Shown piece after piece: positions 2 to 15,200 of a DNA stretch of 64,000 bases. Within the stretch, counting starts at the first letter, position 1. Every line of letters begins with the position of its first letter. The notes beneath the pieces are model-generated. The model worked only from the letters and a program-made list of their open reading frames with translations. It was not told where the DNA came from and did not search any database. Source of the stretch: Flavobacteriales bacterium (GTDB lineage: Bacteria > Bacteroidota > Bacteroidia > Flavobacteriales_F > PHOS-HE28); contig JAWKNG010000005.1 of assembly GCA_041391845.1 (NCBI GenBank), positions 17,381 to 81,380 of the forward strand, read 5' to 3'. The translations under genes and the position numbers were made by a program.

Positions 2-583
2 CAGCAGTTCGCCTACACCAAGGGCAAGAACAGCACGGACAGCGCACTGATCATCGACGCCATGGACATCCTGCACGGCGAGCTGGTGGACGCTTTCTGC
101 ATTGTGAGCAGTGACAGTGACTATACCCGGTTGGCCACCCGCCTGCGCGAGAGTGGTCTGTTCGTCATGGGCGTCGGGGAGAAGAAGACCCCGGACGCCT
201 TTGTGAAAGCCTGTGAGCGCTTCATCTACGTAGAGAACCTTGATGTTCAAGAGGCAGGGACAGGGGCAGGAGCAGGGGCAGGAGCAGCCGGCAAGGAGCG
301 CGGCAAGCGCAGCACCTCCACCGCGAAGGCCCAGCCCGTGAAACTCTCGCAGAACGCGGAGCTCATGCGCAAAATGCGCAAGGCCTTCAACATTGCCAAG
401 GGTGAAGAGGAGGAGGTTTCCCTCAGCCTGATCGGTCAGGCCCTGCGCCGCCTGGATCCCGGCTTCGATCCGCGCAGCTACGGTCACGCATCACTTTCGT
501 CCTTGGTGATCGCCTTGAAGGACCAATTGGAGACCCGCCGCGAGGAGAAGGGCAACATGGTTATGGTGCGGTTCAGGGGGTGA
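2..583 (+). CDS. NYN (LabA-like, PIN-like) domain protein with C-terminal OST-HTH/LOTUS domain; 5' end truncated by the window edge
   Basis: The reading frame is open from base 2. The translation ...ALIIDAMDILHGELVDAFCIVSSDSDYTRLATRLRESGLFVMGVGEKKTPDAFVKACERFIY matches the NYN/LabA core. A GAGAGAGAAG linker leads to a C-terminal block typical of OST-HTH (LIGQALRRLDPGFDPRSYGHASLSSLV). Confidence 0.6.
   Translation, partial: QQFAYTKGKNSTDSALIIDAMDILHGELVDAFCIVSSDSDYTRLATRLRESGLFVMGVGEKKTPDAFVKACERFIYVENLDVQEAGTGAGAGAGAAGKERGKRSTSTAKAQPVKLSQNAELMRKMRKAFNIAKGEEEEVSLSLIGQALRRLDPGFDPRSYGHASLSSLVIALKDQLETRREEKGNMVMVRFRG
254..289 (+). repeat. Short GC-rich tandem repeat (GGGGCAGGAGCA x ~3) encoding a Gly/Ala linker
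   Basis: A direct repeat is visible in the DNA and translates to GTGAGAGAGAAG between the two domains of the NYN protein. Confidence 0.5.
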
Positions 584-612
584 GCCAACCGCGCCGGGTG
601 CGTCCGTCCGGC

Positions 613-620
613 TATCTTTG
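613..620 (+). promoter_or_regulatory. Putative Bacteroidota-type -7 promoter box (TATCTTTG) upstream of ileS
   Basis: The box fits the TAnnTTTG consensus and lies 42 nt upstream of the ileS ATG. The same TATCTT(T/C)GCG core recurs upstream of several other genes in this window. Confidence 0.4.
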
Positions 621-662
621 CGGCCCGCCTGCCGAAAGGCACGGTCCCGTAGAAAAGCCCTG

Positions 663-3600
663 ATGGACAAGCGTTTCCCGCAGTACGACGAACTCGACCT
701 GCCCAAGGTCGCTGAGGAGGTGTTGAAGCAATGGGAGGCCGAGGATACCTTCGGCAAGAGCCTGGAGCTGCGCAAGGACGCTCCGCCCTTCGTGTTCTAC
801 GAGGGCCCGCCCAGCGCCAACGGCCTGCCCGGCATCCACCACGTGATGGCCCGTGCCATCAAGGACATCTTCTGCCGCTACCAAACCCAGAAAGGCCACC
901 GCGTGGACCGCAAGGCGGGCTGGGACACGCACGGCCTGCCCATCGAGCTCGGCGTCGAGAAGGAGCTGGGCATCACCAAGGAGGACATCGGCAAGTCCAT
1001 CAGCATCGAGGAGTACAACGCGGCGTGCAGGAAGGCCGTGATGCGCTACACCGATGTGTGGAACGACCTGACGAAGCGCATCGGCTTCTGGCTCGACCTG
1101 GAGCATCCGTACGTCACGTACCACACCAAGTACATCGAGAGCGTGTGGCACCTGCTGAAGCAGCTCCACGATCAGGACCTGCTGTACAAGGGCTACACCA
1201 TCCAGCCTTACTCGCCTGCAGCGGGCACTGGACTCAGCAGCCACGAGCTGAACCAACCTGGCACGTACAAGCCGGTGAAGGACACCAGCGTGGTGGCGCA
1301 GTTCAAGGTGAAGCGCGACGCGAACAGCGAATGGCTCTTCAACGATGCCTTCGGTGAGGTCTTCATCCTCGCGTGGACGACCACGCCTTGGACCCTGCCC
1401 AGCAACTGCGCGCTCACCGTGGGCCCCAAGCTGGACTATGCCCGCGTGAAGACCTTCAACCCCTACACGCACGCCCCGCAGACCGTGGTGCTGGCCAAGG
1501 CGCGGTTGAATGCCTACTTCAAGGAGGAGCACAAGGATGCTTCGTTCGACGACTACAAGAAGGACGGGAAGAACATCCCCTGGAGCATCCTCGACGAATT
1601 CTACGGCCACCAGCTCGAGGGCGTCCGCTACGAGCAGCTGCTGCCCTATGCGACACCCGAAGGCGGCGATGCCTTCACCGTGATCGGCGGCGATTTCGTG
1701 ACCACGGAGGACGGTACGGGCGTGGTGCACACGGCACCCAGCTTCGGTGCGGATGACCAGCGTGTGGCGCGCCAGCACGGCATCGGATCGCTCACCCTCG
1801 TTGATCTGCGCGGTCGCTTCAAGACAGAGGTGACCGACTTCGCCGGCGAGTACGTGAAGGCCGAGTACCTCAGCAAGGAGGAGCAGGAGGCCGAAGTGAA
1901 GAAGCAGGGCCGCGACAAGTACCTCAGCGTGGACGAGCGCATCGCCATCAAGCTGAAGACCGAGGGCCGCGCCTTCAAGGTGGAGAAGTACGAGCACAAC
2001 TACCCGCACTGCTGGCGCACCGATAAGCCTGTGCTCTACTACCCGCTCGACAGCTGGTTCGTGCGTGTGACCGCGAAGAAGGACCGGCTCATCGCGCTCA
2101 ACAGGACCATCACCTGGAAGCCCGAGAGCACCGGCACCGGGCGCTTCGGCAACTGGCTGGAGAACCTGCAGGACTGGAACCTGTCGCGCTCACGCTACTG
2201 GGGCATCCCGCTGCCCATCTGGCGCACCGAGGATGGCAGCGAGGAGCTCTGCATCGGCTCACTGAAACAGTTGAAGGAGGAGATCGCGCGCGCCGTGAAG
2301 GCCGGTGTGATGGCGGCCGACCCCTACGCCGCGTTCGACCCTGCGGACATGAGCGATGCCAACTACGACCGCATCGACATCCATCGTCCGTACGTGGACC
2401 ACATCGTACTGGTGAGCCCCGCCGGGAAGCCCATGCATCGCGAGACCGACCTCATCGACGTGTGGTTCGACAGCGGCGCCATGCCCTACGCGCAGTGGCA
2501 CTACCCCTTCGAGAACGAGGCCACCTTCAAGGAGAAGTTCCCGGCGGCCTTCATTGCCGAAGGCGTGGACCAGACGCGCGGTTGGTTCTACACCCTGCAC
2601 GCCATCGCCACGCTCACGCAGGACAGCGTCGCCTATCGCACTGTGGTGAGCAACGGCCTGGTTCTCGACAAGGTGGGCCAGAAGATGAGCAAGCGCCTGG
2701 GCAACGCGGTTGATCCGTTCAAGACGCTGGACCAGTATGGCGCCGATGCGGTGCGCTGGTACATGATCAGCAACGCCTCGCCCTGGGACAACCTGAAGTT
2801 CGACGCCGAGGGCATCACCGAGGTGCAGCGCAAGTTCTTCCGCGCGCTCTTCAATACCTACAACTTCTTCGCGCTGTATGCGAACATCGATGGCTTCGAT
2901 GGGAAGGGTGAAGTCTCGCTCACCGAAAGCGACCGCTGGATCCTCTCGCGCCTCAACAGCGTTCTGAAGCTCGCCGATGCGAGCTATGCCGACTACGAGC
3001 CCACGATCGCTGCGCGGGCCATCCAGGACTTCGTGGTGGAGGACCTGAGCAACTGGTACGTACGCCTCAACCGCCGCCGCTTCTGGAAGGGCGAGCTGGG
3101 CGCAGACAAGAACGCCGCGTTCAGCACCCTGCACCGCTGTCTGGAAGTGGTGGCCATGCTCAGCGCGCCCATCGCGCCCTTCTTCAGCGACCGCCTGTAC
3201 CGCGACCTGAAGGGCACGAGCGTACACCTCAGCGATTGGCCGAAGCACGACGAGCAACTGATCGACACTGAATTGGAGCAACGCACTGCGCTCGCGCAGA
3301 AGCTCACCTCACTGGTGCTGAGCATCCGCAAGAAGGAGGGCCACCGCGTGCGTCAGCCGCTGCAGAAGATGCTGGTGCCGGTGACCGATGCGGCCATGCG
3401 CACACGCCTCGAGGCCATCCGCGACCTGGTGTTGAGCGAGGTGAACGTGAAGGAACTCGTGATCCTCGATGCCAGTGAGAGCAAGCTCACCAAGAAGATC
3501 AAGCCGGACTTCAAGAAGCTCGGCGCGCGCATGGGCAAGCTGATGAAGAGCGTGGCTGTTGCGGTGAACGCGTTCGACCAGGCGCAGATCGCTGAGCTCG

Positions 3601-4046
3601 AAGCGAAGGGCCGTATGAAGCTCACGGTGGAAGGGCAGGAAGTGGAGCTGCTGCGCGACGACGTGGAGATCACGGCCGAGAACGTGCCGGGCCTGAGCGT
3701 GGCCAGTGATGGGCCGCTCACCGTGGCGCTGGACATCACCCTCACCGAGGACCTGATCAGCGAAGGCATCGCGCGCGAGCTGGTGAGCCGGATCCAGGCC
3801 CTGCGCAAGGAGAGCGGCTTCGAGGTGACGGACCGTGTTCAGTTGCATATCCATCCAGGAGGTGACGAACGGGTTGTGCAGGCCGTGCGGAGCCACGCCG
3901 GTTGGATACTGTCCGAAACACTGGCATTAACCCCTGAGGACCAGGTTCTTGTGTCGTCACTTCCGGCCGAGGGCGCGGGCATCCACGAAGTGGAGTTGGA
4001 CGAGCAGTTGCGGGTGGCACTGAGCCTTGTGCGGTCCGTGAACTGA
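663..4046 (+). CDS. ileS: Isoleucine--tRNA ligase
   Basis: The 1127-aa product carries the class I HIGH-type motif (PPSANGLPGIHH) and KMSKR, and has the length and architecture of IleS. The ORF-track start at 618 is a TTG inside the promoter box; ATG 663 (MDKRFPQY) is the likely start. Confidence 0.95.
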   Translation: MDKRFPQYDELDLPKVAEEVLKQWEAEDTFGKSLELRKDAPPFVFYEGPPSANGLPGIHHVMARAIKDIFCRYQTQKGHRVDRKAGWDTHGLPIELGVEKELGITKEDIGKSISIEEYNAACRKAVMRYTDVWNDLTKRIGFWLDLEHPYVTYHTKYIESVWHLLKQLHDQDLLYKGYTIQPYSPAAGTGLSSHELNQPGTYKPVKDTSVVAQFKVKRDANSEWLFNDAFGEVFILAWTTTPWTLPSNCALTVGPKLDYARVKTFNPYTHAPQTVVLAKARLNAYFKEEHKDASFDDYKKDGKNIPWSILDEFYGHQLEGVRYEQLLPYATPEGGDAFTVIGGDFVTTEDGTGVVHTAPSFGADDQRVARQHGIGSLTLVDLRGRFKTEVTDFAGEYVKAEYLSKEEQEAEVKKQGRDKYLSVDERIAIKLKTEGRAFKVEKYEHNYPHCWRTDKPVLYYPLDSWFVRVTAKKDRLIALNRTITWKPESTGTGRFGNWLENLQDWNLSRSRYWGIPLPIWRTEDGSEELCIGSLKQLKEEIARAVKAGVMAADPYAAFDPADMSDANYDRIDIHRPYVDHIVLVSPAGKPMHRETDLIDVWFDSGAMPYAQWHYPFENEATFKEKFPAAFIAEGVDQTRGWFYTLHAIATLTQDSVAYRTVVSNGLVLDKVGQKMSKRLGNAVDPFKTLDQYGADAVRWYMISNASPWDNLKFDAEGITEVQRKFFRALFNTYNFFALYANIDGFDGKGEVSLTESDRWILSRLNSVLKLADASYADYEPTIAARAIQDFVVEDLSNWYVRLNRRRFWKGELGADKNAAFSTLHRCLEVVAMLSAPIAPFFSDRLYRDLKGTSVHLSDWPKHDEQLIDTELEQRTALAQKLTSLVLSIRKKEGHRVRQPLQKMLVPVTDAAMRTRLEAIRDLVLSEVNVKELVILDASESKLTKKIKPDFKKLGARMGKLMKSVAVAVNAFDQAQIAELEAKGRMKLTVEGQEVELLRDDVEITAENVPGLSVASDGPLTVALDITLTEDLISEGIARELVSRIQALRKESGFEVTDRVQLHIHPGGDERVVQAVRSHAGWILSETLALTPEDQVLVSSLPAEGAGIHEVELDEQLRVALSLVRSVN

Positions 4047-4060
4047 CGCGCGAAAGCGCC

Positions 4061-4068
4061 TATATTTG
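4061..4068 (+). promoter_or_regulatory. Putative -7 promoter box (TATATTTG) for the dksA-like gene
   Basis: Exact TAnnTTTG match about 30 nt upstream of ATG 4099. Confidence 0.45.
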
Positions 4069-4098
4069 CGGATCTTCAACGCAAGCCCCGCTACGACC

Positions 4099-5205
4099 AT
4101 GGCCAAGAAACCCGCTCCGAAGAAGGCTGCAAAACCTGCAAAGCCCGCCGCCAAGAAGGTGACCAAGGCCGCAGCGAAGTCGAAGCCCGCCGCCAAGAAA
4201 GCGGCCAAAGTGGCGCCCAAGAAAGCGGCTGCGAAGCCGGCTAAGGCCGCCAGTAAGAAGCCGGTGAAAGCCGCTGCCAAGAAGGCGGCGCCCAAGAAGG
4301 CCGTGGCGAAGAAAGTGACCAAGCCCGCAGCCAAGAAAGCCGCACCCAAAAAGGCGGCGCCCAAGAAGGTAGCGGTGAAGAAGGCAGCGGTGAAAAAAGC
4401 GGCACCGAAGAAGGTGGTGGCCAAAAAGGCTGCGCCGAAGAAAGCGGCACCGAAGAAAGCAGCGAAGAAGGCCGCGCCGAAGAAAGCTGCGGCCAAGCCA
4501 GTGTTGAAGAAGACGCCTGCAAAGCCCGTTGCAAAAGCCGCGCCCGCCAAGGCCGCAACCAAGGCCGCACCAGCCAAACCGGCGGCCAAGGCCCCTGCAC
4601 CTAAACCTGTACCCGTGAACAAGCCGGCCACAAAGGCCGTTGCTCCCACTCCGGCAGCCCCCAAAGCGGCGCCGACACCCAAGCCCGTGAAGAAGGACGT
4701 GAAGAAGACCGAAACGGCCGAGAGCGCAAGATCTGCCGCATCAAAACCCCTGGTGACCCAGGTGGTGGCCCCCAACCGACCCATGGCGGCACCGGTGGTG
4801 AAGAAGCAGGTAAGCACCCTGGAGAGCGCCGACAAGGTGCGCTACTCTGATGATGAGCTCGCCGAATTCAAGGAGTTGATCCTGAAAAAGTTGGACGAGG
4901 CCCGCAAGGACTATGACCTGCTGAAGCAGACATTGGCCAACACGGACAACAACGGCACGGACGATACGAGCCCTTCCTTCAAGATGATTGAGGACGGCAG
5001 CGAGACCCTGAGCCGCGAAGAAACGGCCCAGCTTGCTGGTCGCCAGGAGAAGTTCATCAAGCACCTGGAGGACGCCCTGCTTCGCATCCGCAACAAGACC
5101 TACGGCATCTGCCGCGTCACCGGTCGCTTGATCAGCAAGGAGCGTCTGCGCCTCGTGCCACACGCCACCCTGAGCATCGAGGCCAAGCAGCAGATGGGCA
5201 ACTAA
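4099..5205 (+). CDS. DksA/TraR-family C4-type zinc-finger-like protein with a long N-terminal histone H1-like Lys/Ala-rich repeat domain
   Basis: About 230 N-terminal residues are (A/P)KKAA(P)KK repeats. The C-terminal region (~120 aa: DELAEFKELILKKLDEARKDY...TYGICRVTGRLISKERLRLVPHATLSIEAKQQ) has the DksA/TraR layout. The position between ileS and lspA is conserved in Bacteroidota. Confidence 0.7.
   Translation: MAKKPAPKKAAKPAKPAAKKVTKAAAKSKPAAKKAAKVAPKKAAAKPAKAASKKPVKAAAKKAAPKKAVAKKVTKPAAKKAAPKKAAPKKVAVKKAAVKKAAPKKVVAKKAAPKKAAPKKAAKKAAPKKAAAKPVLKKTPAKPVAKAAPAKAATKAAPAKPAAKAPAPKPVPVNKPATKAVAPTPAAPKAAPTPKPVKKDVKKTETAESARSAASKPLVTQVVAPNRPMAAPVVKKQVSTLESADKVRYSDDELAEFKELILKKLDEARKDYDLLKQTLANTDNNGTDDTSPSFKMIEDGSETLSREETAQLAGRQEKFIKHLEDALLRIRNKTYGICRVTGRLISKERLRLVPHATLSIEAKQQMGN
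4105..4620 (+). repeat. In-frame tandem nucleotide repeats (gccaagaaagcggcgcccaagaag variants) encoding KAAPKK-type repeats
   Basis: Many near-identical 18-24 nt units are visible in the DNA, and the protein shows the same periodicity. Confidence 0.6.
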
Positions 5206-5229
5206 GCCCGCGGCGATCTGTCGTTCCCA

Positions 5230-5913
5230 GTGAAGCGCCCGCTGCTCATCATCCTGCTCGTGCTGCTGGCCGACCAGGTGTTGAAGGTGTGGGTGAAGCT
5301 CACCTTCTTTTACGATGCGGCCGTTCCGCTCTTCGGCGACTGGGGGTACCTGCACTTCATCGAGAACCGGGGCATGGCCTTCGGCATGGAGTTCGGTGGT
5401 GCGTGGGGGAAGCTCGCCCTTTCATTGTTCCGCATTGCAGCGGTCGCTGGCATCGGTTATGCCCTGCTGCGCATGGTACGCCAGGGTGCGCGCACGGCCC
5501 AGGTGGTCAGTGTATCGTTGATCTTTGCCGGAGCGCTGGGGAACATCATCGACAGTACCTTCTATGGCGTGCTCTTCAGTGCCAGCACACCGTTCCAGAA
5601 GGCCGTGCTCCTCCCCGCGGAAGGCGGCTACGCACCCTTGTTGCACGGCGCGGTGGTGGACATGTTCTACTTCCCCCTTTGGGAAGGCGTGCTGCCTGAA
5701 TGGCTCCCGATCTGGGGCGGGGAGTACGCCCTCTTCTTCCGTCCGGTCTTCAACATCGCCGATGCGGCCATCACCATTGGAGTGGCGCTGTTCATATTGG
5801 TGCAACGGCCGGAGCCGGCCAAGCCCGCAGCAGCCGATGCGGCGCAGGCGGATGTCACCCCGCTGCCGGATGCTCCCGACAGCTCTGCGGAAGCGCCTCG
5901 CACGGAAGCGTAA
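5230..5913 (+). CDS. lspA: Lipoprotein signal peptidase II with a Pro/Ala-rich C-terminal extension
   Basis: The LspA core is present (NRGMAFGM, FNIADAAITIGV). It uses a GTG start. The ~40-aa C-terminal tail is low-complexity (PEPAKPAAADAAQADVTPLPDAPDSSAEAPRTEA). Confidence 0.85.
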   Translation: MKRPLLIILLVLLADQVLKVWVKLTFFYDAAVPLFGDWGYLHFIENRGMAFGMEFGGAWGKLALSLFRIAAVAGIGYALLRMVRQGARTAQVVSVSLIFAGALGNIIDSTFYGVLFSASTPFQKAVLLPAEGGYAPLLHGAVVDMFYFPLWEGVLPEWLPIWGGEYALFFRPVFNIADAAITIGVALFILVQRPEPAKPAAADAAQADVTPLPDAPDSSAEAPRTEA

Positions 5914-5949
5914 GCGAAAGGATCGTCATCAAGCCCGCACCTTTGCCGC

Positions 5950-7059
5950 ATGTTCGCAGCAGGTGCCTTTACCTACCGAACGGGACACCATGCACCGCTA
6001 GACGGGCTGCGCGCGGTGGCGGTACTGCTGGTAGTGGGCTACCACTGGCTGCCGGGTCTGTTGCCGCAAGGCTTGATGCAGCTTGGGTGGAGCGGAGTGG
6101 ACCTCTTCTTCGTGCTCTCCGGCTTCCTGATCACAGGGCAGTTGCTGGATGAGCAGGGCGCACCAGGCTGGTATGGTCGCTTCCTGGCGCGACGGGCCTT
6201 GCGCATCCTACCGCTCTACTATGCAGCACTCCTGCTCTTTGTGGCCTACGCGCGGATGAGCAACGATCCAGAAGCGCAGTCCACCCTGAGCGGCATGCCA
6301 TGGTTCTGGACCTACACGCCCAACCTGTGGTTCAGCTTGGAAGGCATGCCCGGTGCACGTGGCCTGCTCAACCACTTCTGGTCGCTGGGGCTGGAAGAGC
6401 AGTTCTACCTGCTTTGGCCGGCGGCGATCGCCTTCTTGCCCGGCCGCACCATCCCGGTGCTGGCATTGGGCGGCGTTCTTTTGGGGGTGATCATCCGGCA
6501 CCTGCACCCGGTGGTCCCCTTCGCTTACACCTTTCCACTAGCGCACGCCGATGGACTGTTGTTGGGCGGCGCGATAGCTTGGGCCATGCGCTACAAGCGC
6601 GTTACGTTGGAGCGCTGGTGGTCGCCGGTCATGATCCTCGCTGGAGTTGCACTCCTGTTCCTTGTTTTGGGCACCGTTCCGATCAGCATCCATCATCCCC
6701 TGTTCATCCGGTGGGCACCCACACTGTTCCCCCTGCTGTTCGCCAGCTTGCTGTGCGCCACGTTCGCGAAAGGTGAACACTGGCAGCGGTACTGGCAGCG
6801 GCCATTGAGCGTTCCGCTATTGGCTTTTATCGCGCGCTATTCCTACGGCATCTATGTGATCCATTGGCCGCTGCTGCTGATGCGCGATCGCATCCAGGAT
6901 GCACTTGTGGAAGCTGGTGTGCGCGCAAGCAGTGCTGGCACGGTGTTCACCTTGCTCTATTTCCCGGGCGTACTGTTGCTCGCCCTGCTCAGCTACCACG
7001 CATTGGAACGACCCTTCCTACGCCTAAAGCGCCACTTCAGCGTTCAGGCAACGCGCTGA
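5950..7059 (+). CDS. Acyltransferase family 3 (OafA/YrhL-like) membrane protein
   Basis: The N-terminus reads LDGLRAVAVLLVVGYHW, which is typical of acyltransferase 3. The product is polytopic and ends SYHALERPFLRLK. Confidence 0.8.
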   Translation: MFAAGAFTYRTGHHAPLDGLRAVAVLLVVGYHWLPGLLPQGLMQLGWSGVDLFFVLSGFLITGQLLDEQGAPGWYGRFLARRALRILPLYYAALLLFVAYARMSNDPEAQSTLSGMPWFWTYTPNLWFSLEGMPGARGLLNHFWSLGLEEQFYLLWPAAIAFLPGRTIPVLALGGVLLGVIIRHLHPVVPFAYTFPLAHADGLLLGGAIAWAMRYKRVTLERWWSPVMILAGVALLFLVLGTVPISIHHPLFIRWAPTLFPLLFASLLCATFAKGEHWQRYWQRPLSVPLLAFIARYSYGIYVIHWPLLLMRDRIQDALVEAGVRASSAGTVFTLLYFPGVLLLALLSYHALERPFLRLKRHFSVQATR

Positions 7060-8051
7060 GGCACCTTCAGCAGCCCCTTCTTCACCAACAGCTCGGCGAT
7101 CTGCACGGCATTGGTGGCCGCGCCCTTGCGCAGATTGTCCGCCACGATCCACATGTTCAAGGTGCGGGGCTGGGTCTCGTCGCGGCGCAGGCGGCCAACG
7201 AACACCTCGTCGCGGCCGTTGGCGATCAAGGGCATGGGATACGCATCCTGTGCAGGATCATCGAGCAGTTGAACGCCCGGTGCGTTCCGTAGCAGTTCAC
7301 GCACCTTCTCCAGATCGAACTCCCGCTCGAACTCCACGTTCACAGCCTCGCTATGGCCACCGGTAACAGGCACACGCACGGCGGTGGCGGTCACGCGGAT
7401 GGCCGGGTCGAGGATCTTGTTCGTTTCATGCACGAGCTTCATCTCCTCCTTGGTGTAGCCATTGTCCGTGAACACATCACAGCGCGGGATCACATTGCGG
7501 TCGATCGCGAAGGGGTAGGCCATTTCGCCCTGTACACCGTTGCGCTCGTTCTCCAGTTGACGCACGGCCTTCATGCCGGTACCGGTAACGCTCTGATAGG
7601 TGGAGACGATGACCCGTTGCACGTTGAACACCTTGTGCAGCGGGGCCAGCGCCAGTACCAGCTGAATGGTACTGCAGTTGGGGTTGGCGATGATCCGATC
7701 ATCAGCGGTCAGCACATCCCCATTGATCTCCGGCACCACCAGCTTCTTATCGGGGAACATGCGCCATGCGCTGCTGTTGTCCACCACGGTGCAGCCCACT
7801 TCGGCGAAGCATGGCGCCCATTCGAGTGACGTAGCGCCGCCGGCGGAGAACAGTGCGAGCTGCGGGCGCGCAGCGATGGCCGCTTCCATGCCCACGACCG
7901 GGACCTGTGTTCCGGCGAAGGGGACCAGGCTTCCAACGCTGCGTTCGGTGGCCACGGGCAACAGCTCATCGACGGGGAACCGGCGCTCTTCGAGCACCTT
8001 CAGCATCACCCCACCGACCATGCCGGTGGCACCTACTACAGCGACTTTCAT
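7044..8051 (-). CDS. asd: Aspartate-semialdehyde dehydrogenase
   Basis: MKVAVVGATGMVGGVMLKVLEER... with the active-site region NPNCSTIQLVLALAPL; 335 aa. Confidence 0.9.
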   Translation of the reverse strand: MKVAVVGATGMVGGVMLKVLEERRFPVDELLPVATERSVGSLVPFAGTQVPVVGMEAAIAARPQLALFSAGGATSLEWAPCFAEVGCTVVDNSSAWRMFPDKKLVVPEINGDVLTADDRIIANPNCSTIQLVLALAPLHKVFNVQRVIVSTYQSVTGTGMKAVRQLENERNGVQGEMAYPFAIDRNVIPRCDVFTDNGYTKEEMKLVHETNKILDPAIRVTATAVRVPVTGGHSEAVNVEFEREFDLEKVRELLRNAPGVQLLDDPAQDAYPMPLIANGRDEVFVGRLRRDETQPRTLNMWIVADNLRKGAATNAVQIAELLVKKGLLKVPQRVA

Positions 8052-8078
8052 GGCGTTAGCGGTGGTTGGGCCGCAGGG

Positions 8079-8086
8079 CGAAAGTA
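8079..8086 (-). promoter_or_regulatory. Putative -7-like box (TACTTTCG on the minus strand) upstream of asd
   Basis: A TAnnTT(C)G variant lies about 27 nt upstream of the asd start. Confidence 0.25.
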
Positions 8087-8119
8087 CTACCTTGGGGCAC
8101 TGTCGAACCTGCCTTCCTC

Positions 8120-10714
8120 ATGTCGTTCCGTGCCCTCCTATTCGCGCTGGTGGTCCTCCATGCTCCGCTGCTCAGCGCCCAGTTCCAGGACGACTTCAGC
8201 GATGGCGACTTCACCAATGCTCCGGCGTGGGAGGGCGATGCGGCGGTGTTCATCGTCAACGGCAACAATGAGCTGCAACTGAGCAATACCGTGGCGGCCA
8301 CCAGTCAGTTGCGCAGCGCCAACACCATGGCCACGCTCAACGACATGGAGTGGCGGATCAAGGTGCGACAGAGCTTCGCGGGTAGTGGGAGCAACTTCGG
8401 GCGGGTGTACCTCGTGAGCGATCAGGCCGACCTCACAGGCCCTCTGAACGGTTATTACCTTCAGTTCGGTGAGGCCGGCAGCGCCGACGCGATCGAGCTC
8501 TTCGAACAGACCGGCACCACCAGTGCTTCCATTTGCCGCGGCACCGACGGGGCCATTGCCAACAGCTTTACTGCTGGCATACAGGTGAAGCGCGACGCTG
8601 GCGGCACGTGGCAGTTGTTGGTGGACTTGACGGGAGGAACGAACTATGTATTGCAAGCCTCGGGCCTGGGTACCGCGCACACCAGTAGTGCGTTCATCGG
8701 CGTGCGCTGCACCTACACAGTGAGCAATGCGGATGGGTTCTTCTACGACGACCTCTACGCCGGACCGGCCATCATCGACCTCACACCACCGAGCCTCATC
8801 AGCGCAACGGCCGTAGCAGTGGACCAGGTGGAACTGGTGTTCAGTGAAGCGGTGGACGAAGCGACGGCAGAGGCGATCGGCAACTTCGCCCTCACTCCTT
8901 CCATCGGTGTGAACAGCGCGATCCGCAGCGAACTGGACCAGGCGCGGGTGCTGCTTTTCCTCGGTTCGGCCCTCGCCAATGGCGGCGGTTACACGGTAAC
9001 TGTGAACGGCGTGCAGGACCTGGCCGGCAATACCCTGGTGAACGGGACCGCGAACTTCACCTACTTGGTACCGTCTGCAGCAGGTCCGCGCGATGTGGTC
9101 ATCAATGAGTTCATGGCGGACCCTACGCCGACGGTGGGCCTCCCGGAGGTGGAGTACCTGGAGCTCTACAACGCCACCACCGACCAGACCTTCGACCTGG
9201 CCGGCTGGACCTTCAGCGATGGCGGCACGCCGGTAACCTTCCCCAGTTACGCGCTTGGACCCGGTGCGTACGTACTGGTGGTGACACAGGCCAACCTCGG
9301 CCTCTTTCCAACGGTTTCCAACAAGGTCGGGATGAGCAGTCTGCCTGCGCTGAACAACGATGGCGATGCCCTGAGCCTGCGCAGCGACGACGGCAGCTTG
9401 ATCGATGCAGTGACCTATGCGCTCAGCTGGTACCAGGACGCCGTGAAGGACGATGGCGGCTGGAGCCTGGAGCAGATCGATCCCTTCAGCCCGTGCAGCG
9501 GTGCCGCGAACTGGAGGGCTTCCAACGCATCTGTGGGCGGCACACCGGGTGCTCAGAACAGCGTCTTCGCGGTAGTCCCGGACGTCATCCCACCCACATT
9601 CTCCGCAGTGCTCGTGCCCTCCACCACCAGCCTGGTGCTGCGCTTCAGCGAACCGATGGATGCCGCCAGCATCGCCGGTGGCACGTACATTATTTCCCCC
9701 GCAGTGGCCGTGCTCAGTGCAGTTGCCACCGGTGCCGATGCCGCCACGTTGCTGCTTGGAGAAGGGCTCACCATCGGCCAGGTCTACACCATCAGCATCA
9801 GCGGTCAGCGCGACTGCCCCGGCAACCTCATCGGCGCGGGCAGCAGTCGTTCGTTCGCGTTGCCGGAAGCCGCCGAAGCGGGTGACATCGTCATCAATGA
9901 AGTACTGTACGACCCCTTTGTGGATGGCGTGGACTTTGTGGAACTGTACAACCGGTCGGACAAGACCTTGAGCCTGGCGTCGCTCCAATTGGCCAACGTG
10001 GGCATTGGTGGCATCGGCAGCGTACTGCCCATCACCACCGACCTCCTGCTCCTGCCCGACGAATACGCGGTGATCACCACTGACCTTGCCGCCACCCTGC
10101 GCTTCTATCCACAGACCCGCACCGACCGGGTGGTGGTGAACAGCATGCCGAGCTACAACAACGGAGAAGGCACGGTGCTCCTGCTCACTGCGGATGGCGA
10201 CACCTTGGACCTGTTCCGCTACTCGGACGACCTGCATTTCGGACTGGTGAACCAGCCGGAGGGTTACAGCTTGGAGCGCGTCGATCCATCACGCCCCGCG
10301 GACGATGCCACCAACTGGCAGACCGCTGCGGAACAGGCTGGCAAGGCCACGCCCGGCTACCGGAACTCACAGTTCGCCGAGGCTCCCGCACCCACGGGCG
10401 AGCTCACGATCGAGCCGGCCATCTTCAGTCCCGACAACGATGGCTTCCAGGACCTTCTCACTCTCAGTTACCGCTTTGAGCAGCCGGGCTTCGTGGGCAG
10501 CATCACCATCTTCGACATCGCCGGAAGGGCTGTGCGTGCACTGGTACAGAGCCAGCTGCTGGGTGTGGAAGGCGCGTACAGCTGGGATGGCCTCACCGAT
10601 GAGGGCAGCAAGGCCCGCATGGGCCCGTACATCGTGGTGCTGGAAGCCTTCGATCTGAGCGGCAACGTGGAGACCTTCCGCCGCACAGTGACCCTGGCGC
10701 ATCGCCTGGAATGA
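8120..10714 (+). CDS. Secreted multidomain protein with two lamin-tail (LTD) domains, Ig-like repeats and a CHU_C/T9SS-type C-terminal sorting domain
   Basis: Signal peptide MSFRALLFALVVLHAPLLSAQ. LTD signatures VVINEFMADPTP...EYLELYN and IVINEVLYDP...FVELYN. The C-terminus contains IFSPDNDGFQD...ITIFDIAGR. Confidence 0.75.
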   Translation: MSFRALLFALVVLHAPLLSAQFQDDFSDGDFTNAPAWEGDAAVFIVNGNNELQLSNTVAATSQLRSANTMATLNDMEWRIKVRQSFAGSGSNFGRVYLVSDQADLTGPLNGYYLQFGEAGSADAIELFEQTGTTSASICRGTDGAIANSFTAGIQVKRDAGGTWQLLVDLTGGTNYVLQASGLGTAHTSSAFIGVRCTYTVSNADGFFYDDLYAGPAIIDLTPPSLISATAVAVDQVELVFSEAVDEATAEAIGNFALTPSIGVNSAIRSELDQARVLLFLGSALANGGGYTVTVNGVQDLAGNTLVNGTANFTYLVPSAAGPRDVVINEFMADPTPTVGLPEVEYLELYNATTDQTFDLAGWTFSDGGTPVTFPSYALGPGAYVLVVTQANLGLFPTVSNKVGMSSLPALNNDGDALSLRSDDGSLIDAVTYALSWYQDAVKDDGGWSLEQIDPFSPCSGAANWRASNASVGGTPGAQNSVFAVVPDVIPPTFSAVLVPSTTSLVLRFSEPMDAASIAGGTYIISPAVAVLSAVATGADAATLLLGEGLTIGQVYTISISGQRDCPGNLIGAGSSRSFALPEAAEAGDIVINEVLYDPFVDGVDFVELYNRSDKTLSLASLQLANVGIGGIGSVLPITTDLLLLPDEYAVITTDLAATLRFYPQTRTDRVVVNSMPSYNNGEGTVLLLTADGDTLDLFRYSDDLHFGLVNQPEGYSLERVDPSRPADDATNWQTAAEQAGKATPGYRNSQFAEAPAPTGELTIEPAIFSPDNDGFQDLLTLSYRFEQPGFVGSITIFDIAGRAVRALVQSQLLGVEGAYSWDGLTDEGSKARMGPYIVVLEAFDLSGNVETFRRTVTLAHRLE

Positions 10715-12129
10715 GGACCGCGAACTACCTCGCAGGAGTGTGGCAGGAGCAGGGTGAAGCGTTGCACACTGTGCGCGATGCCTATACCGGAGCAGTTATC
10801 GCTGAAGTGTCCCTGGCCGATGCTTCCGCCATGGATAAGGCCATTGCATCAGCGGCGGACGCGCGAAGCACCCTGGAAGCCCTTGGAGCTGAGGAACGCG
10901 CAGCACGCTTGGAACACTTGGCTGCGACGCTCTTCGATCGCAGTGAAGAGTTCGCACAGCTCATCCGACGCGAAGCGGGCAAGCCGATCACGTATGCGAG
11001 GACCGAAGTTGCACGCGCGATCACCACTGTGAAGCTGGCAGCTGCAGCGGGGCTGCAACTGCAGGATGAAGAGATCGATGTGGACTACGATGCAGGGCGA
11101 GGCAGACGCGCTTGGGTACGTCGTGTACCGGTCGGAGTGGTGGCGGCCATCACACCGTTCAACTTCCCGCTGAACCTGGTGTTGCACAAGGTGGCGCCTG
11201 CCCTGGCCATGGGCTGTCCGGTGGTGTTGAAGCCAGCACCGCAGACCCCATTGACCGCATTGCTGTTGGCCGAATTGATCGATGCGTTACGGTTCCCTGC
11301 AGGCAGCTTCAGTACGGTACCGTGCAACACGGGGGTCGCTGAGCAACTGGTGAAGGACGAGCGCGTGGCCCTCCTCAGCTTCACCGGTAGCGACTCAGTG
11401 GGCTGGCGGCTCAAGGAGATCTGCGGTCGCAAGCGCGTAGCCTTGGAACTGGGCGGCAATGCCGCAGTGATCGTGGACGAAGGCACCGACCTGGCAAGCG
11501 CTGCCACGCTCATTGCGCAGGGAGCCTTCGCTTATGCCGGGCAGACCTGCATCAGCACCCAGCGGATCTATGTAGTGGAGCCGCTCTTCGCCGCGTTCCG
11601 CGATGCGCTTCTGGAAGCCACACAGCACATTGTCAGTGGAGATCCCGCACGCGCAGAGGTGCACAATGGACCGCTCATCGATGCACACCACTGCGCCCGC
11701 ATTGCACGCTGGGTGGAGGAAGCACAACAAGCCGGTGCCACGGTGCTTTGCGGGGGCCAGGTGTTGGACCCAGCGCACAACGTGTATGCCCCCACCCTGC
11801 TCACAGGCACACGACCGAGCATGCGCATCAACGCGGATGAAGCCTTCGGTCCCGTGGCTGTAGTGGAACCAGCGCGTGACTTCGACGACGCCCTTCAGCT
11901 GGTGAACGCATCCCGCTTCGGCCTTCAAGCAGGTCTCTTCAGCACCAACGAACACCACATCCAGCGCGCCTTTGCTGAACTGGAAGTGGGCGGTCTCATC
12001 ATCAACGGTGCGCCCGGACTGCGGGTGGATGGCATGCCATATGGCGGGGTGAAGCACAGTGGACTGGGTCGTGAAGGGCCGCGTTACACCATGGATGAGA
12101 TGAGCGAACGGCGTGTGCTGCTGCGCTGA
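10711..12129 (+). CDS. NAD(P)+-dependent aldehyde dehydrogenase
   Basis: ALDH family: catalytic Cys in GQTCIS, ELGGNA motif, ITPFNFP. Its ATG overlaps the upstream gene's stop (ATGA at 10711-10714). Confidence 0.85.
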   Translation: MRTANYLAGVWQEQGEALHTVRDAYTGAVIAEVSLADASAMDKAIASAADARSTLEALGAEERAARLEHLAATLFDRSEEFAQLIRREAGKPITYARTEVARAITTVKLAAAAGLQLQDEEIDVDYDAGRGRRAWVRRVPVGVVAAITPFNFPLNLVLHKVAPALAMGCPVVLKPAPQTPLTALLLAELIDALRFPAGSFSTVPCNTGVAEQLVKDERVALLSFTGSDSVGWRLKEICGRKRVALELGGNAAVIVDEGTDLASAATLIAQGAFAYAGQTCISTQRIYVVEPLFAAFRDALLEATQHIVSGDPARAEVHNGPLIDAHHCARIARWVEEAQQAGATVLCGGQVLDPAHNVYAPTLLTGTRPSMRINADEAFGPVAVVEPARDFDDALQLVNASRFGLQAGLFSTNEHHIQRAFAELEVGGLIINGAPGLRVDGMPYGGVKHSGLGREGPRYTMDEMSERRVLLR

Positions 12130-12187
12130 ACGGCGCATAGGGCTTGCGTTTCCCCGCGCATTGGTATAGATTGCTCATCCATTTACC

Positions 12188-12210
12188 GGTGGTGGCCGAT
12201 CCGCACCACC
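12188..12210 (+). terminator. Possible stem-loop (GGTGGTG-N9-CACCACC) downstream of the ALDH gene
   Basis: An inverted repeat is visible, but there is no U-tract, so its role as a terminator is uncertain. Confidence 0.2.
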
Positions 12211-12226
12211 TCAATGCCACGGTTCA

Positions 12227-15200
12227 ATGGCCCGTTCTTTACGCTCTTTCAAGACCCCGCTCACCTTCAGCCTCATCGCTGGTGTGGTGGGTCTTTCCGC
12301 CTTCAACGCCTTGGGTGTGAAGGAGCAGCCAGCAACCACCACGGGCGCGAAAAGCGCAGTGCCCACATCGGACTTCACCAACTTCGAATCGGCGCATGTG
12401 CACCCATTGGAGCTGACGCCCGACGGCACCAAACTGCTCGCGGTGAACACGGGGAACAACAGCCTGGAGGTGTTCCTGGTGACGCCGGCCGGATTGGCCC
12501 ATGCGAAGACCATTCCCGTGGGCCTTGAGCCCGTGAGCGTAAGAGCTCGGACCAATGGTGAGGCTTGGGTGGTGTGCCAGGTGAGCGACGAGGTGAGCGT
12601 GGTGGACCTCACGCTGGGCGCCACCATCCGGAGCGTTCTCACCGAAAATGAACCTGCCGATGTGGTCTTTGCCGGATCGCCGCAGAAAGCCTTCGTCAGC
12701 TGTGCCGAACAGGAGCTTGTGCAGGTGTTCGACCCCGCCAACCCCGCCACAGCGCCCACAGTGGTATTGTTGAAGGGCGAACAGCCACGCGCTCTGGCGG
12801 TGAGCCCCGATGGCAGCACGGTGTACTGCGCCTTCTTCGAGAGCGGCAACCAGACCACGGTGGTGCCCGGTAATGCCTTTCACGCCGCCGGCTTCTGCTC
12901 GGTGCAGGGTGGTGCGTGTACCACGGTTCCCAGTGACGTGACCAACCCGGCCGGGCCGTATGGCGGGGTTGTGCCCGTGCCCAATGCTGGCAGCGGCTTC
13001 AACCCGCCAATGAACCCGAACAACCCCGCCATGGACGCCAACCACAGCCTTGTGGTGCGCAAGAACGCGGCCGGGCAGTGGATGGATGACAACGGAGGCA
13101 ATTGGACCACCATCGTCACTGGTGGCCTGCCAGGAACCGCGCGTATCGCAGGCTGGGACATGCCCGACCGCGACGTGGCGATGATCAATGCCAACAACCC
13201 CACCACCGCAGGTGTCACGTACAAGCAGCACCTGGGCAACATCCTCATGGCGATGTCGGTGCATCCTACGAGCGGTGAGGTCTACGTGGTGGGCACGGAC
13301 GCAACCAACGAAGTGCGCTTCGAGCCCAATCTGCGCGGCAAGTTCCTGCGGGTGAACGTGTCACGCTTCGCCCCGGCCGGCAGCCCGCTCATCGCCGACC
13401 TCAATCCGCACATCAACTACAGCACCCACAGCTCGCCACCTGTGCTGAGGAAGCAGTCCGTGGGCGACCCGCGGGGCATCGCATGGAAGGCCGACGGCAG
13501 CAAGGCCTATGTCACGGGCATGGGCAGCAACAACGTCATCACCATCACACCCACCGGCAGCCGCACCGTGCCGGACCCGATCGTGGTGGGGGAAGGTCCA
13601 ACGGGCATTGTGCTGGACGAGGTGAACGGCCGCGCTTACGTGCTCAACAAGTTCGGCGCGTCGGTCTCCACCATCGACCTCACGAGCGATGAGGAGGTGG
13701 CGCGCACGGGCTTCTTCGATCCCACGCCGGAGATCATCCGCAAGGGACGCAAGCATCTTTACAATACACACGAAGGCAGTGGACACGGCCACATCAGCTG
13801 CGGCTCATGCCACGTGGATGGCCGCTGGGACCGGCTCGCCTGGGACCTCGGCAACCCGGCGGGCGACCCGGTCACGGTGACCGATCCGGCAGGCAACAAG
13901 ACCTTCCACCCGATGAAGGGATTGAAGACCACCCAGTTCCTCATCGATATCATCGACCGGGGCACGGGCAAGCTGCATTGGCGCGGTGACAAGGGCAGCT
14001 TCCACGATTTCGCCGGTGCTTTCGAGGACCTGCAGGGCACTGAAGCACCGCTCGATCCGGTGGGCATGCAGGAGTTCTCCGACTTCCTCAATGCCACCTG
14101 GCATGTCCCCAACCCCTACCGCACCATACGTCCTGACAGCTCCGTGGCCGCAAGTGTGGAGCGCATGCCCGGTCGTGTACGCCTGACCGGTACCAGCTTC
14201 CAGAACGTGCCGGCGGCAGGTGTGCGGCTGTTCGTGGCGGTGAACGTCAACTGCTCGCACTGCCACCAGACCGGCAGCGGCCGCGGACATCTGCCCGGCA
14301 ACGGCACCAACATCAGCGCCGGCCAGGTGAACATGACCAACAACACGAACATGGTGCCCGACCTGCGAACGGTGTACCGCAAGAACGGCTTCTTCTACAA
14401 CACCACTGAATGCACCAGTGGCTTCGGTCTGATGGCGGATGGCGTGATGGAGACCCGCTTCAACAACCCGGGCGTCAGCGGCCACTACTTCGGCGACTAT
14501 GAGCCCGAGCTGCTCAGTTGGAGCGGAGGCATCACCCAGGCGAACAGCCCGCAGAGCCACCAGTTCAGTTTGGCACATCCGGTGCATGACGCGCTTCCGG
14601 CGGTGGGCATGCGCATGACCATCAACGGCAGCGTGGGCAGTGTGGGCCGCGTGAACAGCATGAAGACCTACATGGTGGAAAAGTATCCGGCTGACTATGC
14701 CTTGGTGGTGAAGGGCTTGTACGAGGGCGAAGCGCGCGGCTTCTACTACATCGGCAGCAACACCTACCAGAGCGACCTCGCGGGGCAGACCGTGACCCAC
14801 GCGCAGTTGCTCGCCGCGGCACAGGCGGGATCGCCGCTCACCTGGACCGTGGTGCACCCCAGCACCAAGATCCGCCACGGTGTTGATCGCGACAGCGATG
14901 GCATCTTCGACTACCAGGACGGCGACGCCGAGCTGGCGCTGAGCCTGTACTTGGAAGGTGCCTTCACGGGTAGCGGTATGCGTACGGACCTGCGCGCGGC
15001 AGGCCTGTTGCCGAGCAACGACCCATACGGCGATGGCGAAGCGCTGAAGCCTGAACTACTGGAGCGCACGGGCAGTGGTGCCCCGGTCGATTGGGTGTGG
15101 CTGGAGCTGCGCGATGCGACCGATGCGGCAGAAGTGATCGATGGACGCGCCTGTCTCGTACTGGCCAATGGCGAAGTGGTGATGGCCGATGGCACAGCTC

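Follow-up and report, generated by a model that had tools for sequence, protein, structure and literature searches.

A histone H1-like polycationic tail on a DksA/TraR-family protein in the ileS–lspA slot of Bacteroidota, with a precedent in Streptomyces DdbA

The gene described here lies within a 64,000-nucleotide stretch of DNA (the window) and is an open reading frame on the forward strand, running from ATG 4099 to TAA 5203–5205. Its complete coding sequence (4099..5205, +) specifies 368 aa plus a stop, arranged as a polycationic tail, a linker and a C1-type DksA/TraR core, and is delimited by in-frame conservation in eight orthologues and by a full-length family alignment, A2. Translated from its MAKK start, the full-length tailed protein has a predicted size of 38.5 kDa; the original prediction had identified the same frame, although its length of 369 aa counted in the stop codon. 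The gene is flanked upstream by ileS (618..4046, +; Pfam tRNA-synt_1 and Anticodon_1, synteny), the true start of which is probably ATG 663, and downstream by lspA (5230..5913, +; Pfam Peptidase_A8, synteny), which begins 24 nt past the tailed gene's stop codon and probably shares its transcript. The order ileS–X–lspA is kept in 68 of 83 related loci, and Pfam, composition and synteny bear out the earlier proposal that this conserved slot is occupied here by a genuine fusion of a DksA/TraR core to a long H1-like polycationic tail. No other K-rich ORF was found in the 64-kb window, which therefore lends no support to the idea that the genome adds such tails generally. Searches for exact copies of the 368-, 143- and 379-aa versions gave no match in a collection of 15 billion proteins; the exact allele is thus uncatalogued.

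The N-terminal region of the protein is a K/A/P(V)-rich tail (residues 1–200; 4099..4698, +), recognised by composition, periodicity and AF2, which opens with a conserved MAKKPAxKKAAKP start and continues as degenerate KKAAP pentapeptides. Among residues 1–235 there are 79 Ala, 70 Lys and 37 Pro; the net charge of this segment is +69 and its pI is 11.4. Lysine spacing in the tail peaks at lags of 4–5, 9–10 and 14–15, and the pentapeptides KKAAP, AAPKK and APKKA occur seven times each. AF2 assigns pLDDT values of 41–53 and zero secondary structure to residues 1–245, and the tail is predicted to be intrinsically disordered. Searched alone, it gave nothing significant in Pfam, where HC2 (PF07382) reached 9.4 bits (cut-off, 40; E = 1.4), and zero matches among PDB sequences, results that rule out membership of the Hc2/H1 families. 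The likeness to H1, Hc1 and AlgP suggested in the original prediction is therefore compositional and does not extend to family membership. Chlamydia Hc2 (PF07382), Pseudomonas AlgP, the C-terminal tails of mycobacterial/Streptomyces HupB/HupS and the PAKKA tail of M. smegmatis Ku are likewise K/A/P-rich, repeat-built, length-variable disordered polycations; however, their resemblance to the tail is one of composition, and none of them is fused to a DksA-type module. Such H1-like polycations bind DNA or, in the case of AlgP, polyP (PMC2848022, PMC9239181, PMC3553676), and in both M. smegmatis Ku, a DNA-transaction protein (PMC3553676), and HBHA (PMC10665949) a K/A/P tail modulates binding to DNA.

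At the DNA level, the tail contains a degenerate in-frame tandem array (4266..4491, +; repeat families D1–D4), in which TRF reports 15-, 27- and 45-bp periods with 68–86% matches (15-bp period, 68–78%; 45 bp × 3.6 copies, 75%; 27 bp × 2.1 copies, 86%). Since these arrays are degenerate, the gapless repeat families of the tail DNA are 60–83% identical and the longest exact repeat is only 19 nt, the repetition in this genome is mainly one of protein and composition, not a clean slippage-prone array. Where tandem DNA repeats had been proposed across 4105–4620, degenerate arrays at 4266–4491 are all that stands, and the associated concern over assembly and slippage is not a strong one, given how far the repeats have degenerated. 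An assembly artefact, with collapsed, expanded or chimeric repeats, might be suspected because the tail of the relative L039 is interrupted by a stretch of Ns and because many close homologues lie on 1–4-kb contigs terminating within the tail or close to it. It is nevertheless extremely unlikely, since at least 13 genomes assembled independently show the equivalent organisation, with contigs of 0.9 and 3.66 Mb among them, the exact repeats lie below any read length, and the frame is intact.

In all eight clade orthologues examined (L001–L005, L081–L083), a conserved MAKK start just past ileS opens a frame that reads through to one terminal stop. The tails of these orthologues span 171–280 aa and are 51–76% identical, and the cores are 86–100% identical; in the pair L081 and L082, cores that are 100% identical accompany tails that are 76% identical. 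Furthermore, L029 and L037, which have near-identical cores, differ in total length (301 vs 342 aa), and the tail-length variation that had been anticipated is thus observed both within the clade and in this second pair. The tailed frame is also open in distant 35%-GC genomes (L006, 358 aa; L035, 289 aa), where tail coding counts for translation because long chance ORFs are very unlikely at this GC content. An Ala/Pro-rich chance ORF produced by high-GC codon bias is ruled out by the presence of tails in 35–43%-GC genomes. The open frame in all eight orthologues, together with the tails of the 35%-GC genomes, argues that the tail is genuinely coding. An equivalent tail–core layout is shared by more than 100 database proteins of 250–380 aa, and both the start and the linker are conserved in the full-length alignment A2. 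Translation from the MAKK ATG is further favoured by a conserved TAnnTTTG-like element about 34 nt ahead of it.

This linker (residues 201–247; 4699..4839, +; PVKKD.KK ... KPLVTQVVAPNRPMAAPVVKKQVSTLESADK) is clade-specific, and residues P217, V219, P225, P228, P232, V234, K235, S239, T240 and L241 are invariant in A2. It includes Met226, which aligns with internal starts used by NCBI and JGI annotation in relatives. The residue is not conserved, being V, I, Q or K in some members, and its replacement in several orthologues rules out an internal-start isoform at Met226 as a conserved feature. With such internal starts, the gene is shortened to 140–143 aa in NCBI and JGI entries for close relatives, and public records of relatives in which dksA is cut to 143 aa call antisense ORFs of 167 and 77 aa as genes. 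Were the annotated short form real, translation would begin near Met226 to give a protein of about 143 aa, and the upstream ~680 nt would be a 5′ leader, a non-coding repeat or an antisense ORF; long chance ORFs do, indeed, occur on many frames in this high-GC genome. We regard this as very unlikely, because apart from the unconserved Met the annotated starts disagree among relatives (MSAPVV, MRPVSAPVV, MPKAAPIV, MVKKQV), whereas the MAKK start is common to phylogenetically separate tailed groups. Moreover, the long frame stays open in every orthologue despite 24–49% amino-acid divergence and many indels, as well as in the 35%-GC genomes, and the antisense ORFs, which range from 77 to 167 aa, have no Pfam match. 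The antisense ‘shadow’ ORF in the window (3957..4835, −; 292 aa, G/A/F/L-rich) reflects the K/A/P repeats on the opposite strand and does not represent a gene. Owing to shortened genes and spurious antisense ORFs, the family is under-counted in the annotated genomes of relatives.

The sequences compared indicate that the tail is a clade-wide feature that evolved repeatedly in Bacteroidota. Tailed forms fall in at least four separate Bacteroidota groups on the core tree and on the IleS tree, both of which are unbootstrapped neighbour-joining trees of short alignments, and the repeat units differ by group (15/45 bp here, 48 bp in L006 and 66 bp in L037). Most Bacteroidota homologues are tail-less, and K-rich N-terminal extensions occur in 73 of the best 150 cluster representatives from a library of 1.84 billion proteins, which is clustered at 50%, so that the count of fast-evolving tailed forms is inflated. 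The novelty for one genome that the original prediction implied is refuted on that prediction's own terms, as every clade orthologue examined is tailed, and the recurrence of the tail in other Bacteroidota lineages also excludes a single-genome oddity.

The fast turnover of tail sequence and length, together with the clean tandem DNA repeats of some lineages (66 bp × 6.8 and 48 bp × 8.4 copies), could also reflect a near-neutral low-complexity expansion that arose by replication slippage at an A/K-rich N-terminus, for which the MA(E/K/T) beginning of tail-less homologues is a possible seed, and that was tolerated because it is disordered. Such a neutral history appears improbable, given that the tail is kept in every clade member examined, with a conserved start motif and linker, and that its composition is held at both 35% and 63% GC. 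At least four apparent independent gains have occurred in one gene family, in addition to that of Streptomyces DdbA in the equivalent slot, and no comparable expansion is seen in the other ORFs of the 64 kb. Furthermore, frame and K/A/P content have been retained here even though the DNA repeats are old and have degenerated.

The C-terminal 121 residues form the DksA/TraR-family core (residues 248–368; 4840..5202, +), identified by Pfam PF01258, PDB profile matches and Foldseek. Residues 334–364 match Pfam zf-dskA_traR (PF01258) with 29.8 bits, exceeding its gathering threshold (24.9), and the PDB profile matches include DksA2 (4ijj, 7.8e-10) and C. trachomatis DksA (6ptg, 1e-9). The top seven Foldseek matches in the PDB are all DksA structures, led by 4ijj (TM 0.59/0.66) and followed by 1tjl, 6ptg, 5vsw and 7khi. 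The AF2 model of the core, of moderate confidence (mean pLDDT 65), contains the two-helix coiled-coil hairpin that precedes the globular domain in the DksA fold; the predicted hairpin (4849..5103, +) consists of a helix at 251–283, a loop and a helix at 306–335. Its acidic tip, D299-G-S-E302-T-L304 (nt 4993–5010, +), corresponds to a Bacteroidota consensus of DGSDxL, whose D, G and L do not vary within the family, and is placed by HMM alignment opposite the DEADLA (DxxDxA) of DksA2; acidic residues (D and E) occupy the two acidic positions, but Leu replaces Ala, and the tip thus reads DGSETL and not DxxDxA.

The core contains a single Cys (C338), which agrees with the earlier observation that the four-Cys zinc finger is incomplete. 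This residue belongs to the zinc-independent motif C338-R-V-T341-x17-S359-I-E-A362 (5110..5184, +), read from the sequence, which follows the C1 definition CxxS/T-x17-C/S/TxxA (PMC9126822). CxxT-x17-SxxA is invariant across 40 Bacteroidota homologues, tail-less ones included; the missing Cys residues are therefore a known C1 trait and not a peculiarity of the fusion. The NCBIfam DksA equivalogs (TIGR02420 / NF033459) gave scores well under their thresholds (43.6 vs 115.5, 42.2 vs 105 and 19.1 vs 289 bits), and by sequence the core is assigned to the DksA/TraR family, not to the DksA equivalogs. Among characterised proteins, C. trachomatis DksA (6ptg, C1 type) and P. aeruginosa DksA2 (4ijj, C2 type) are its best sequence and fold matches, sharing the CxxS/T-x17-C/S/TxxA motif and a long, poorly ordered loop between the coiled-coil helices, and the C. 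trachomatis gene also lies directly upstream of lspA. However, neither protein has a polycationic tail, and their identity to the core is 21–26%. Since C. trachomatis DksA, the closest solved C1 relative, did not complement E. coli dksA (PMC9126822), canonical DksA activity of the core is not assured, and the function of the zinc-independent branch itself is unsettled.

The combination of an H1-like tail and a DksA-like core has been described in DdbA (SCO2075) of Streptomyces coelicolor, named as a ‘DksA-like DNA-binding protein’, which comprises an H1-like DNA-binding N-terminus and a DksA-like C-terminus (Aldridge et al. 2013, PMC3643593). The N-terminal domain of DdbA binds and condenses DNA, whereas the C-terminal domain does not, overexpressing DdbA suppresses a relA phenotype, and its orthologues were found by the authors in streptomycetes only (PMC3643593). 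The tailed protein has the same tail–core architecture and occupies the same slot, ileS–X–lspA here and between ileS (SCO2076) and lsp (SCO2074) in Streptomyces, and the DdbA orthologues likewise vary in tail length (PMC3643593). By its description, DdbA is nevertheless set apart: it belongs to a different phylum, retains all four Cys of the zinc finger as well as the two Asp residues of the tip, in contrast to the lone C338, C1 type and DGSETL tip found here, and carries a tail of ~93 aa of S/T-A/T-A-K-K repeats compared with about 200–235 aa of KKAAP-type repeats. The best NCBIfam match of the tailed protein is TIGR02890 (YlyA / YteA), from which its core differs in scoring far under the cut-off (48.7 vs 134.4 bits). 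In B. subtilis, ylyA adjoins ileS (PMC5282499), which makes it the probable counterpart in Firmicutes at the ileS–lspA slot. Since most Bacteroidota homologues lack a tail, as B. subtilis YlyA presumably lacks a lysine-rich one, the Streptomyces and Bacteroidota tails are most likely convergent. No description of a tailed Bacteroidota DksA was found in the open-access literature, and we regard the Bacteroidota protein as a convergent, previously undescribed counterpart of the known DdbA architecture. By analogy, DdbA provides the best functional model for it, and the idea of a nucleoid-associated transcription factor, put forward in the original prediction, has a direct experimental precedent in this protein (PMC3643593).

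On this model, we consider it probable, if far from certain, that translation from the MAKK start yields a two-module protein in which a DdbA-like tail tethers an RNAP-binding core to the nucleoid. The C-terminal 121 residues would adopt the C1-type fold, with a coiled-coil hairpin bearing the acidic tip and a small globular domain, and, by homology, would dock in the secondary channel of RNA polymerase. The tail, as with DdbA, would bind DNA non-specifically and condense it, hold the RNAP-binding module at high concentration on the nucleoid and thereby couple nucleoid state to transcription initiation. It may have originated by in-frame tandem duplication and been acquired independently several times in Bacteroidota, with selection maintaining its composition and charge, not its sequence.

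A polycationic tail would bind any polyanion, including RNA, polyphosphate and acidic lipids, so that DNA is not the sole candidate ligand. The tail might instead tether the protein to polyphosphate granules, RNA or ribosomes, where the DksA-like module would be sequestered or regulated. A charge of +69 and disorder confer no ligand specificity, AlgP, an H1-like K/A/P repeat protein of Pseudomonas, localises to and spaces polyP granules (PMC9239181), and lysine-rich sequences bind polyP non-covalently (PMC12077175); in addition, the name of a closest-relative MAG (HK-STAS-...) might suggest an origin in wastewater or activated sludge. This alternative seems rather unlikely, as DdbA, the sole experimentally studied protein of such architecture, binds and condenses DNA via its tail (PMC3643593), the partner module acts on RNAP, whose substrate is DNA, and a Pfam survey of 62–15631 revealed no linked polyP genes.

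Histone-tailed DksA proteins, previously represented by Streptomyces DdbA alone, are hereby extended to a second phylum, with the same slot but a different core subtype and repeat unit, which suggests convergent selection for tethering an RNAP-binding module to a polyanion. More tentatively, the DksA-like protein of the ileS–lspA slot could in general be a nucleoid- or polyanion-tethered RNAP factor whose tail arose convergently at least four times in Bacteroidota and once in Streptomyces, a possibility that we raise with reservation. If true, it would point to a general, unrecognised principle by which bacteria have time and again made this particular secondary-channel factor into a regulator that is coupled to chromatin and possibly forms condensates, and the environmental Bacteroidota versions, which number in the hundreds and are in many cases obscured by shortened annotation, would constitute an undescribed class of abundant nucleoid-associated proteins. 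To our knowledge, the nucleoid-associated proteins and stringent-response-type regulation of Bacteroidota are poorly characterised, and a widespread, highly basic 30–40-kDa protein would be an obvious candidate for study among the former.

Upstream of the gene, the sequence TATATTTG (4061..4068, +; 31 nt ahead of the ATG, read from the sequence) matches TAnnTTTG, which we take to be the Bacteroidota −7 promoter consensus. A sigma-70 promoter scan, which does not cover Bacteroidota promoters, returned no sites, and most of the ‘terminator-like’ matches within the coding sequence are artefacts that the repeats produce on the antisense strand. TAnnTTTG occurs four times in the whole window, compared with 5.8 expected, and is not enriched above chance, so that the argument for this candidate element is its position and its conservation in relatives. 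TATATTTG also stands 34 nt ahead of the MAKK ATG in L001, L002 and L004 and at the equivalent position in L081, and L003 and L005 carry TATATTCG at this promoter-like element.

The tailed gene reads from ATG 4099 to TAA 5205 on the plus strand of the window (63% GC) and encodes 368 aa, comprising a K/A/P-rich N-terminal tail, a linker, and a C-terminal DksA/TraR core (residues 248–368). Pfam assigns its neighbors as ileS (618–4046) upstream and lspA (5230–5913) downstream, and the order ileS-X-lspA, in which X is the occupant of the slot, is kept in 68 of 83 related loci. A search for other K-rich ORFs throughout the 64-kb window returned none.

Pfam zf-dskA_traR matches residues 334–364 with 29.8 bits (gathering cut-off 24.9), and the NCBIfam yteA and DksA models match the C-terminus with scores well under their cut-offs. 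A profile of 40 Bacteroidota homologues, 67–94% identical to the core, matched P. aeruginosa DksA2 (4ijj, 7.8e-10) and C. trachomatis DksA (6ptg, 1e-9) in the PDB, as well as A. tumefaciens DksA (2kq9) and E. coli DksA (1tjl). In the AF2 model of the core (mean pLDDT 65), a two-helix hairpin is joined by a small C-terminal domain; each of the seven best Foldseek matches to this model in the PDB is a DksA structure, the highest TM-score being 0.66. The only cysteine of the protein, C338, belongs to the motif C338-xx-T341-x17-S359-xx-A362, an exact fit to the C1 motif known from zinc-independent chlamydial and other DksA proteins (PMC9126822). A four-Cys finger is indeed absent, as originally predicted; however, since the C1 motif is invariant in tail-less Bacteroidota homologues, the lack of the finger is a trait of this whole Bacteroidota family and is unconnected with the fusion. 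The hairpin tip D299-G-S-E302-T-L aligns with DEADLA of DksA2, retaining the acidic pair within a non-canonical motif, and chlamydial C1 DksA does not complement E. coli dksA (PMC9126822). For these reasons, and because of the sub-cut-off NCBIfam scores, the core is filed as a DksA/TraR-family member rather than a DksA equivalog.

Residues 1–235 contain 79 Ala, 70 Lys, and 37 Pro, with a net charge of +69 and a pI of 11.4; the tail lysines are spaced with a period of 4–5 residues, and KKAAP, AAPKK, and APKKA are the most frequent pentapeptides (7 copies each). This composition and the Pfam match bear out the earlier description of an H1-like tail on a DksA-like core. In the AF2 model built on the full-length alignment, residues 1–245 lack secondary structure (pLDDT 41–53). 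Because comparison of the tail with Pfam and the PDB gave no significant relative (HC2 model: 9.4 bits, cut-off 40), "H1-like" is best read as a description of composition only. The tandem DNA repeats described earlier beneath the tail are present but weaker than claimed: TRF reports only degenerate 15-, 27-, and 45-bp arrays within 4266–4491 (matches 68–86%), gapless repeat families reach 60–83% identity, and no exact repeat is longer than 19 nt.

The nearest core homologues, 95–97% identical, are annotated by NCBI as proteins of 140–143 aa. At the three loci encoding one of them, P0010 (L081–L083), an in-frame K/A/P-rich extension initiated by MAKK lies directly 5' of the annotated gene. The public gene calls omit it and place there a minus-strand ORF of 167 or 77 aa without a Pfam hit (2499–3002 in L081 and L083, 2508–2741 in L082); the DksA-like gene is thereby cut to 143 aa, an annotation error common to all three loci. 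The window likewise has, antisense to its K/A/P repeats, a G/A/F/L-rich mirror ORF of 292 aa (3957–4835, minus). In the five closest species-representative genomes (L001–L005), the frame is open from MAKK directly after ileS, and all clade genes examined contain one stop, at the end. Comparison of orthologues for length and repeats, as proposed earlier, gave clade tails of 171–280 aa that are 51–76% identical with many gaps, on cores that are 86–100% identical; between L081 and L082, the core is 100% and the tail 76% identical. The internal Met that lines up with the short annotations is replaced in some members, and annotated starts vary among records. Tailed versions are also present at 35–43% GC (L006, L007, L017, L029, L035, L037, and L053), where a chance ORF of 200 or more GCN/CCN-rich codons is not credible. 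Furthermore, the full-length query retrieved more than 100 proteins of 250–380 aa with a like layout, called only "DksA" or "TraR/DksA family" where the source names them; their alignment proceeds from a MAKKPAxKKAAKP start through a variable K/A/P body and a conserved linker to a nearly invariant core. Given the open frame, the conserved start and linker, the low-GC tailed genes, and the unconserved internal Met, the long form is very probably made. It is highly improbable that the short annotated form is the real gene, and hardly conceivable that the tail is an assembly artefact.

The linker (PLVTQVVAPNRPMAAPVVKKQVSTLES, 4747–4827, residues 217–243) is clade-specific and has invariant prolines, with the consensus KPLVTQVVAPNRPxAAPVVKKQVSTLE among the long proteins. 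It is missing from tail-less homologues, whose proteins start just before RYSD, and may serve as a short linear interaction motif. The database homologue P0003 (214 aa, ENA, 1442-bp contig; core 97% identical) has, where the K-rich tail would be, a ClpS-like N-terminus (PF02617) joined straight to the linker, and may represent a chimeric contig or a genuine rearrangement.

Upstream of the MAKK ATG, the -7-like element TATATTTG (4061–4068) fits TAnnTTTG, the Bacteroidota -7 promoter consensus. The element is kept approximately 34 nt 5' of the MAKK ATG in L001, L002, L004, and L081, and L003 and L005 carry a one-base variant; TAnnTTTG is not enriched across the whole window. A second match, TATCTTTG (613–620), lies ~43 nt 5' of ATG 663 (MDKRFPQY...); ileS probably starts at this ATG and not at the TTG 618 given by the ORF finder.

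The tail is not a novelty of this genome, as had been supposed, but is clade-wide and recurrent in Bacteroidota. Among related species-representative loci, the gene is recognisable at 78, of which 13 have the tail and the others encode proteins of 123–141 aa. In neighbor-joining trees of the cores and of the adjacent IleS C-terminus, neither carrying support values, tailed genomes form four or more groups with tail-less genomes between them: the window's clade; L006 with L017/L053 and L029/L037/L039; L007; and L035, of the Bacteroidales. The tandem repeats of L006 (2374–2777; 48 bp × 8.4 copies, 87%) and L037 (2374–2824; 66 bp × 6.8 copies, 86%) are well preserved, with units that are multiples of three, and the window's array of 15/45-bp units is old and degenerate beside them. 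L029 and L037 differ by 3 core residues and by 41 residues in total length. The differing units and the differing copy number of L029 and L037 point to independent in-frame expansions with ongoing repeat-number change. That the tail is a near-neutral slippage product is quite improbable, since it is retained clade-wide, keeps its composition at both GC extremes, and recurs within one gene family.

When 1.84 billion cluster representatives were searched exhaustively with the profile, 367 proteins reached E <= 1e-30. Of the best 150, 94 are extended at the N-terminus by 40 aa or more, and in 73 of the 94 the extension is at least 20% Lys (45–321 aa, median 189); as 50%-identity clustering gives fast-evolving tailed forms too much weight, 73 of 150 is a count of diversity, not of prevalence. 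A run of N, which is a scaffold gap or masked sequence, interrupts the repeat-encoded tail of the MAG locus L039 (~2650–2750), and many close homologues are on 1–4-kb contigs; where the 48- or 66-bp repeats are clean, short-read assemblies seem to break at the tail.

The design itself is already known from DdbA (SCO2075) of Streptomyces coelicolor, in which a 93-aa H1-like N-terminal domain of S/T-A/T-A-K-K pentapeptides precedes a DksA-like C-terminal domain (PMC3643593). The N-terminal domain shifts DNA in EMSA, whereas the C-terminal domain does not; DdbA condenses DNA; in its absence nucleoid condensation and supercoiling responses are altered, and its overexpression suppresses a relA phenotype (PMC3643593). 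Its tail length varies among streptomycetes, the only genus in which the authors found orthologues (PMC3643593). Since SCO2074 is lsp and SCO2076 is ileS, DdbA occupies the same slot as the tailed gene; with B. subtilis ylyA adjoining ileS and chlamydial dksA directly upstream of lspA, the slot appears ancient. Despite the shared layout, DdbA, compared here by its published description, differs in its four-Cys core (C1 with one Cys in the tailed protein), shorter tail, and other repeat. Because of these differences, and since most Bacteroidota homologues are tail-less and YlyA is not known to carry a tail, convergent acquisition is the economical reading.

By analogy with DdbA, the tailed protein is somewhat more probably than otherwise bifunctional: the disordered polycationic tail would bind DNA non-specifically, the C1 DksA-like module would contact RNAP, and the two could jointly couple nucleoid state with transcription. 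Thus, the original prediction of a nucleoid-associated transcription-factor variant remains reasonable on this experimental precedent, though not as a feature of one genome. K/A/P tails are also found on two other DNA-related proteins, M. smegmatis Ku (PMC3553676) and HBHA (PMC10665949); that of AlgP can instead serve polyphosphate granules (PMC9239181), so tethering to polyphosphate or RNA rather than DNA is conceivable here, although unlikely. No description of Bacteroidota tailed DksA-like proteins was found in the open-access literature. Three points are new: such proteins occur in Bacteroidota and have a C1 core, there is evidence that tails were gained independently and repeatedly in one conserved slot, and NCBI and JGI records of close relatives truncate the tailed genes.

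Elsewhere in the window, the 882-aa product of 8066–10714 (+) combines two lamin-tail (LTD) domains with Big_5 Ig-like domains and shows a weak FlgD_ig-like match at its C-terminus; it is probably secreted or surface-located and has no relation to the tailed gene. Additionally, 62–583 (+) encodes the C-terminal part of an NYN domain and an OST-HTH/LOTUS domain, separated by the Gly/Ala-rich linker GTGAGAGAGAAG; as the NYN match enters the 145-position profile only at position 86, the protein probably begins further upstream, possibly before the start of the window.
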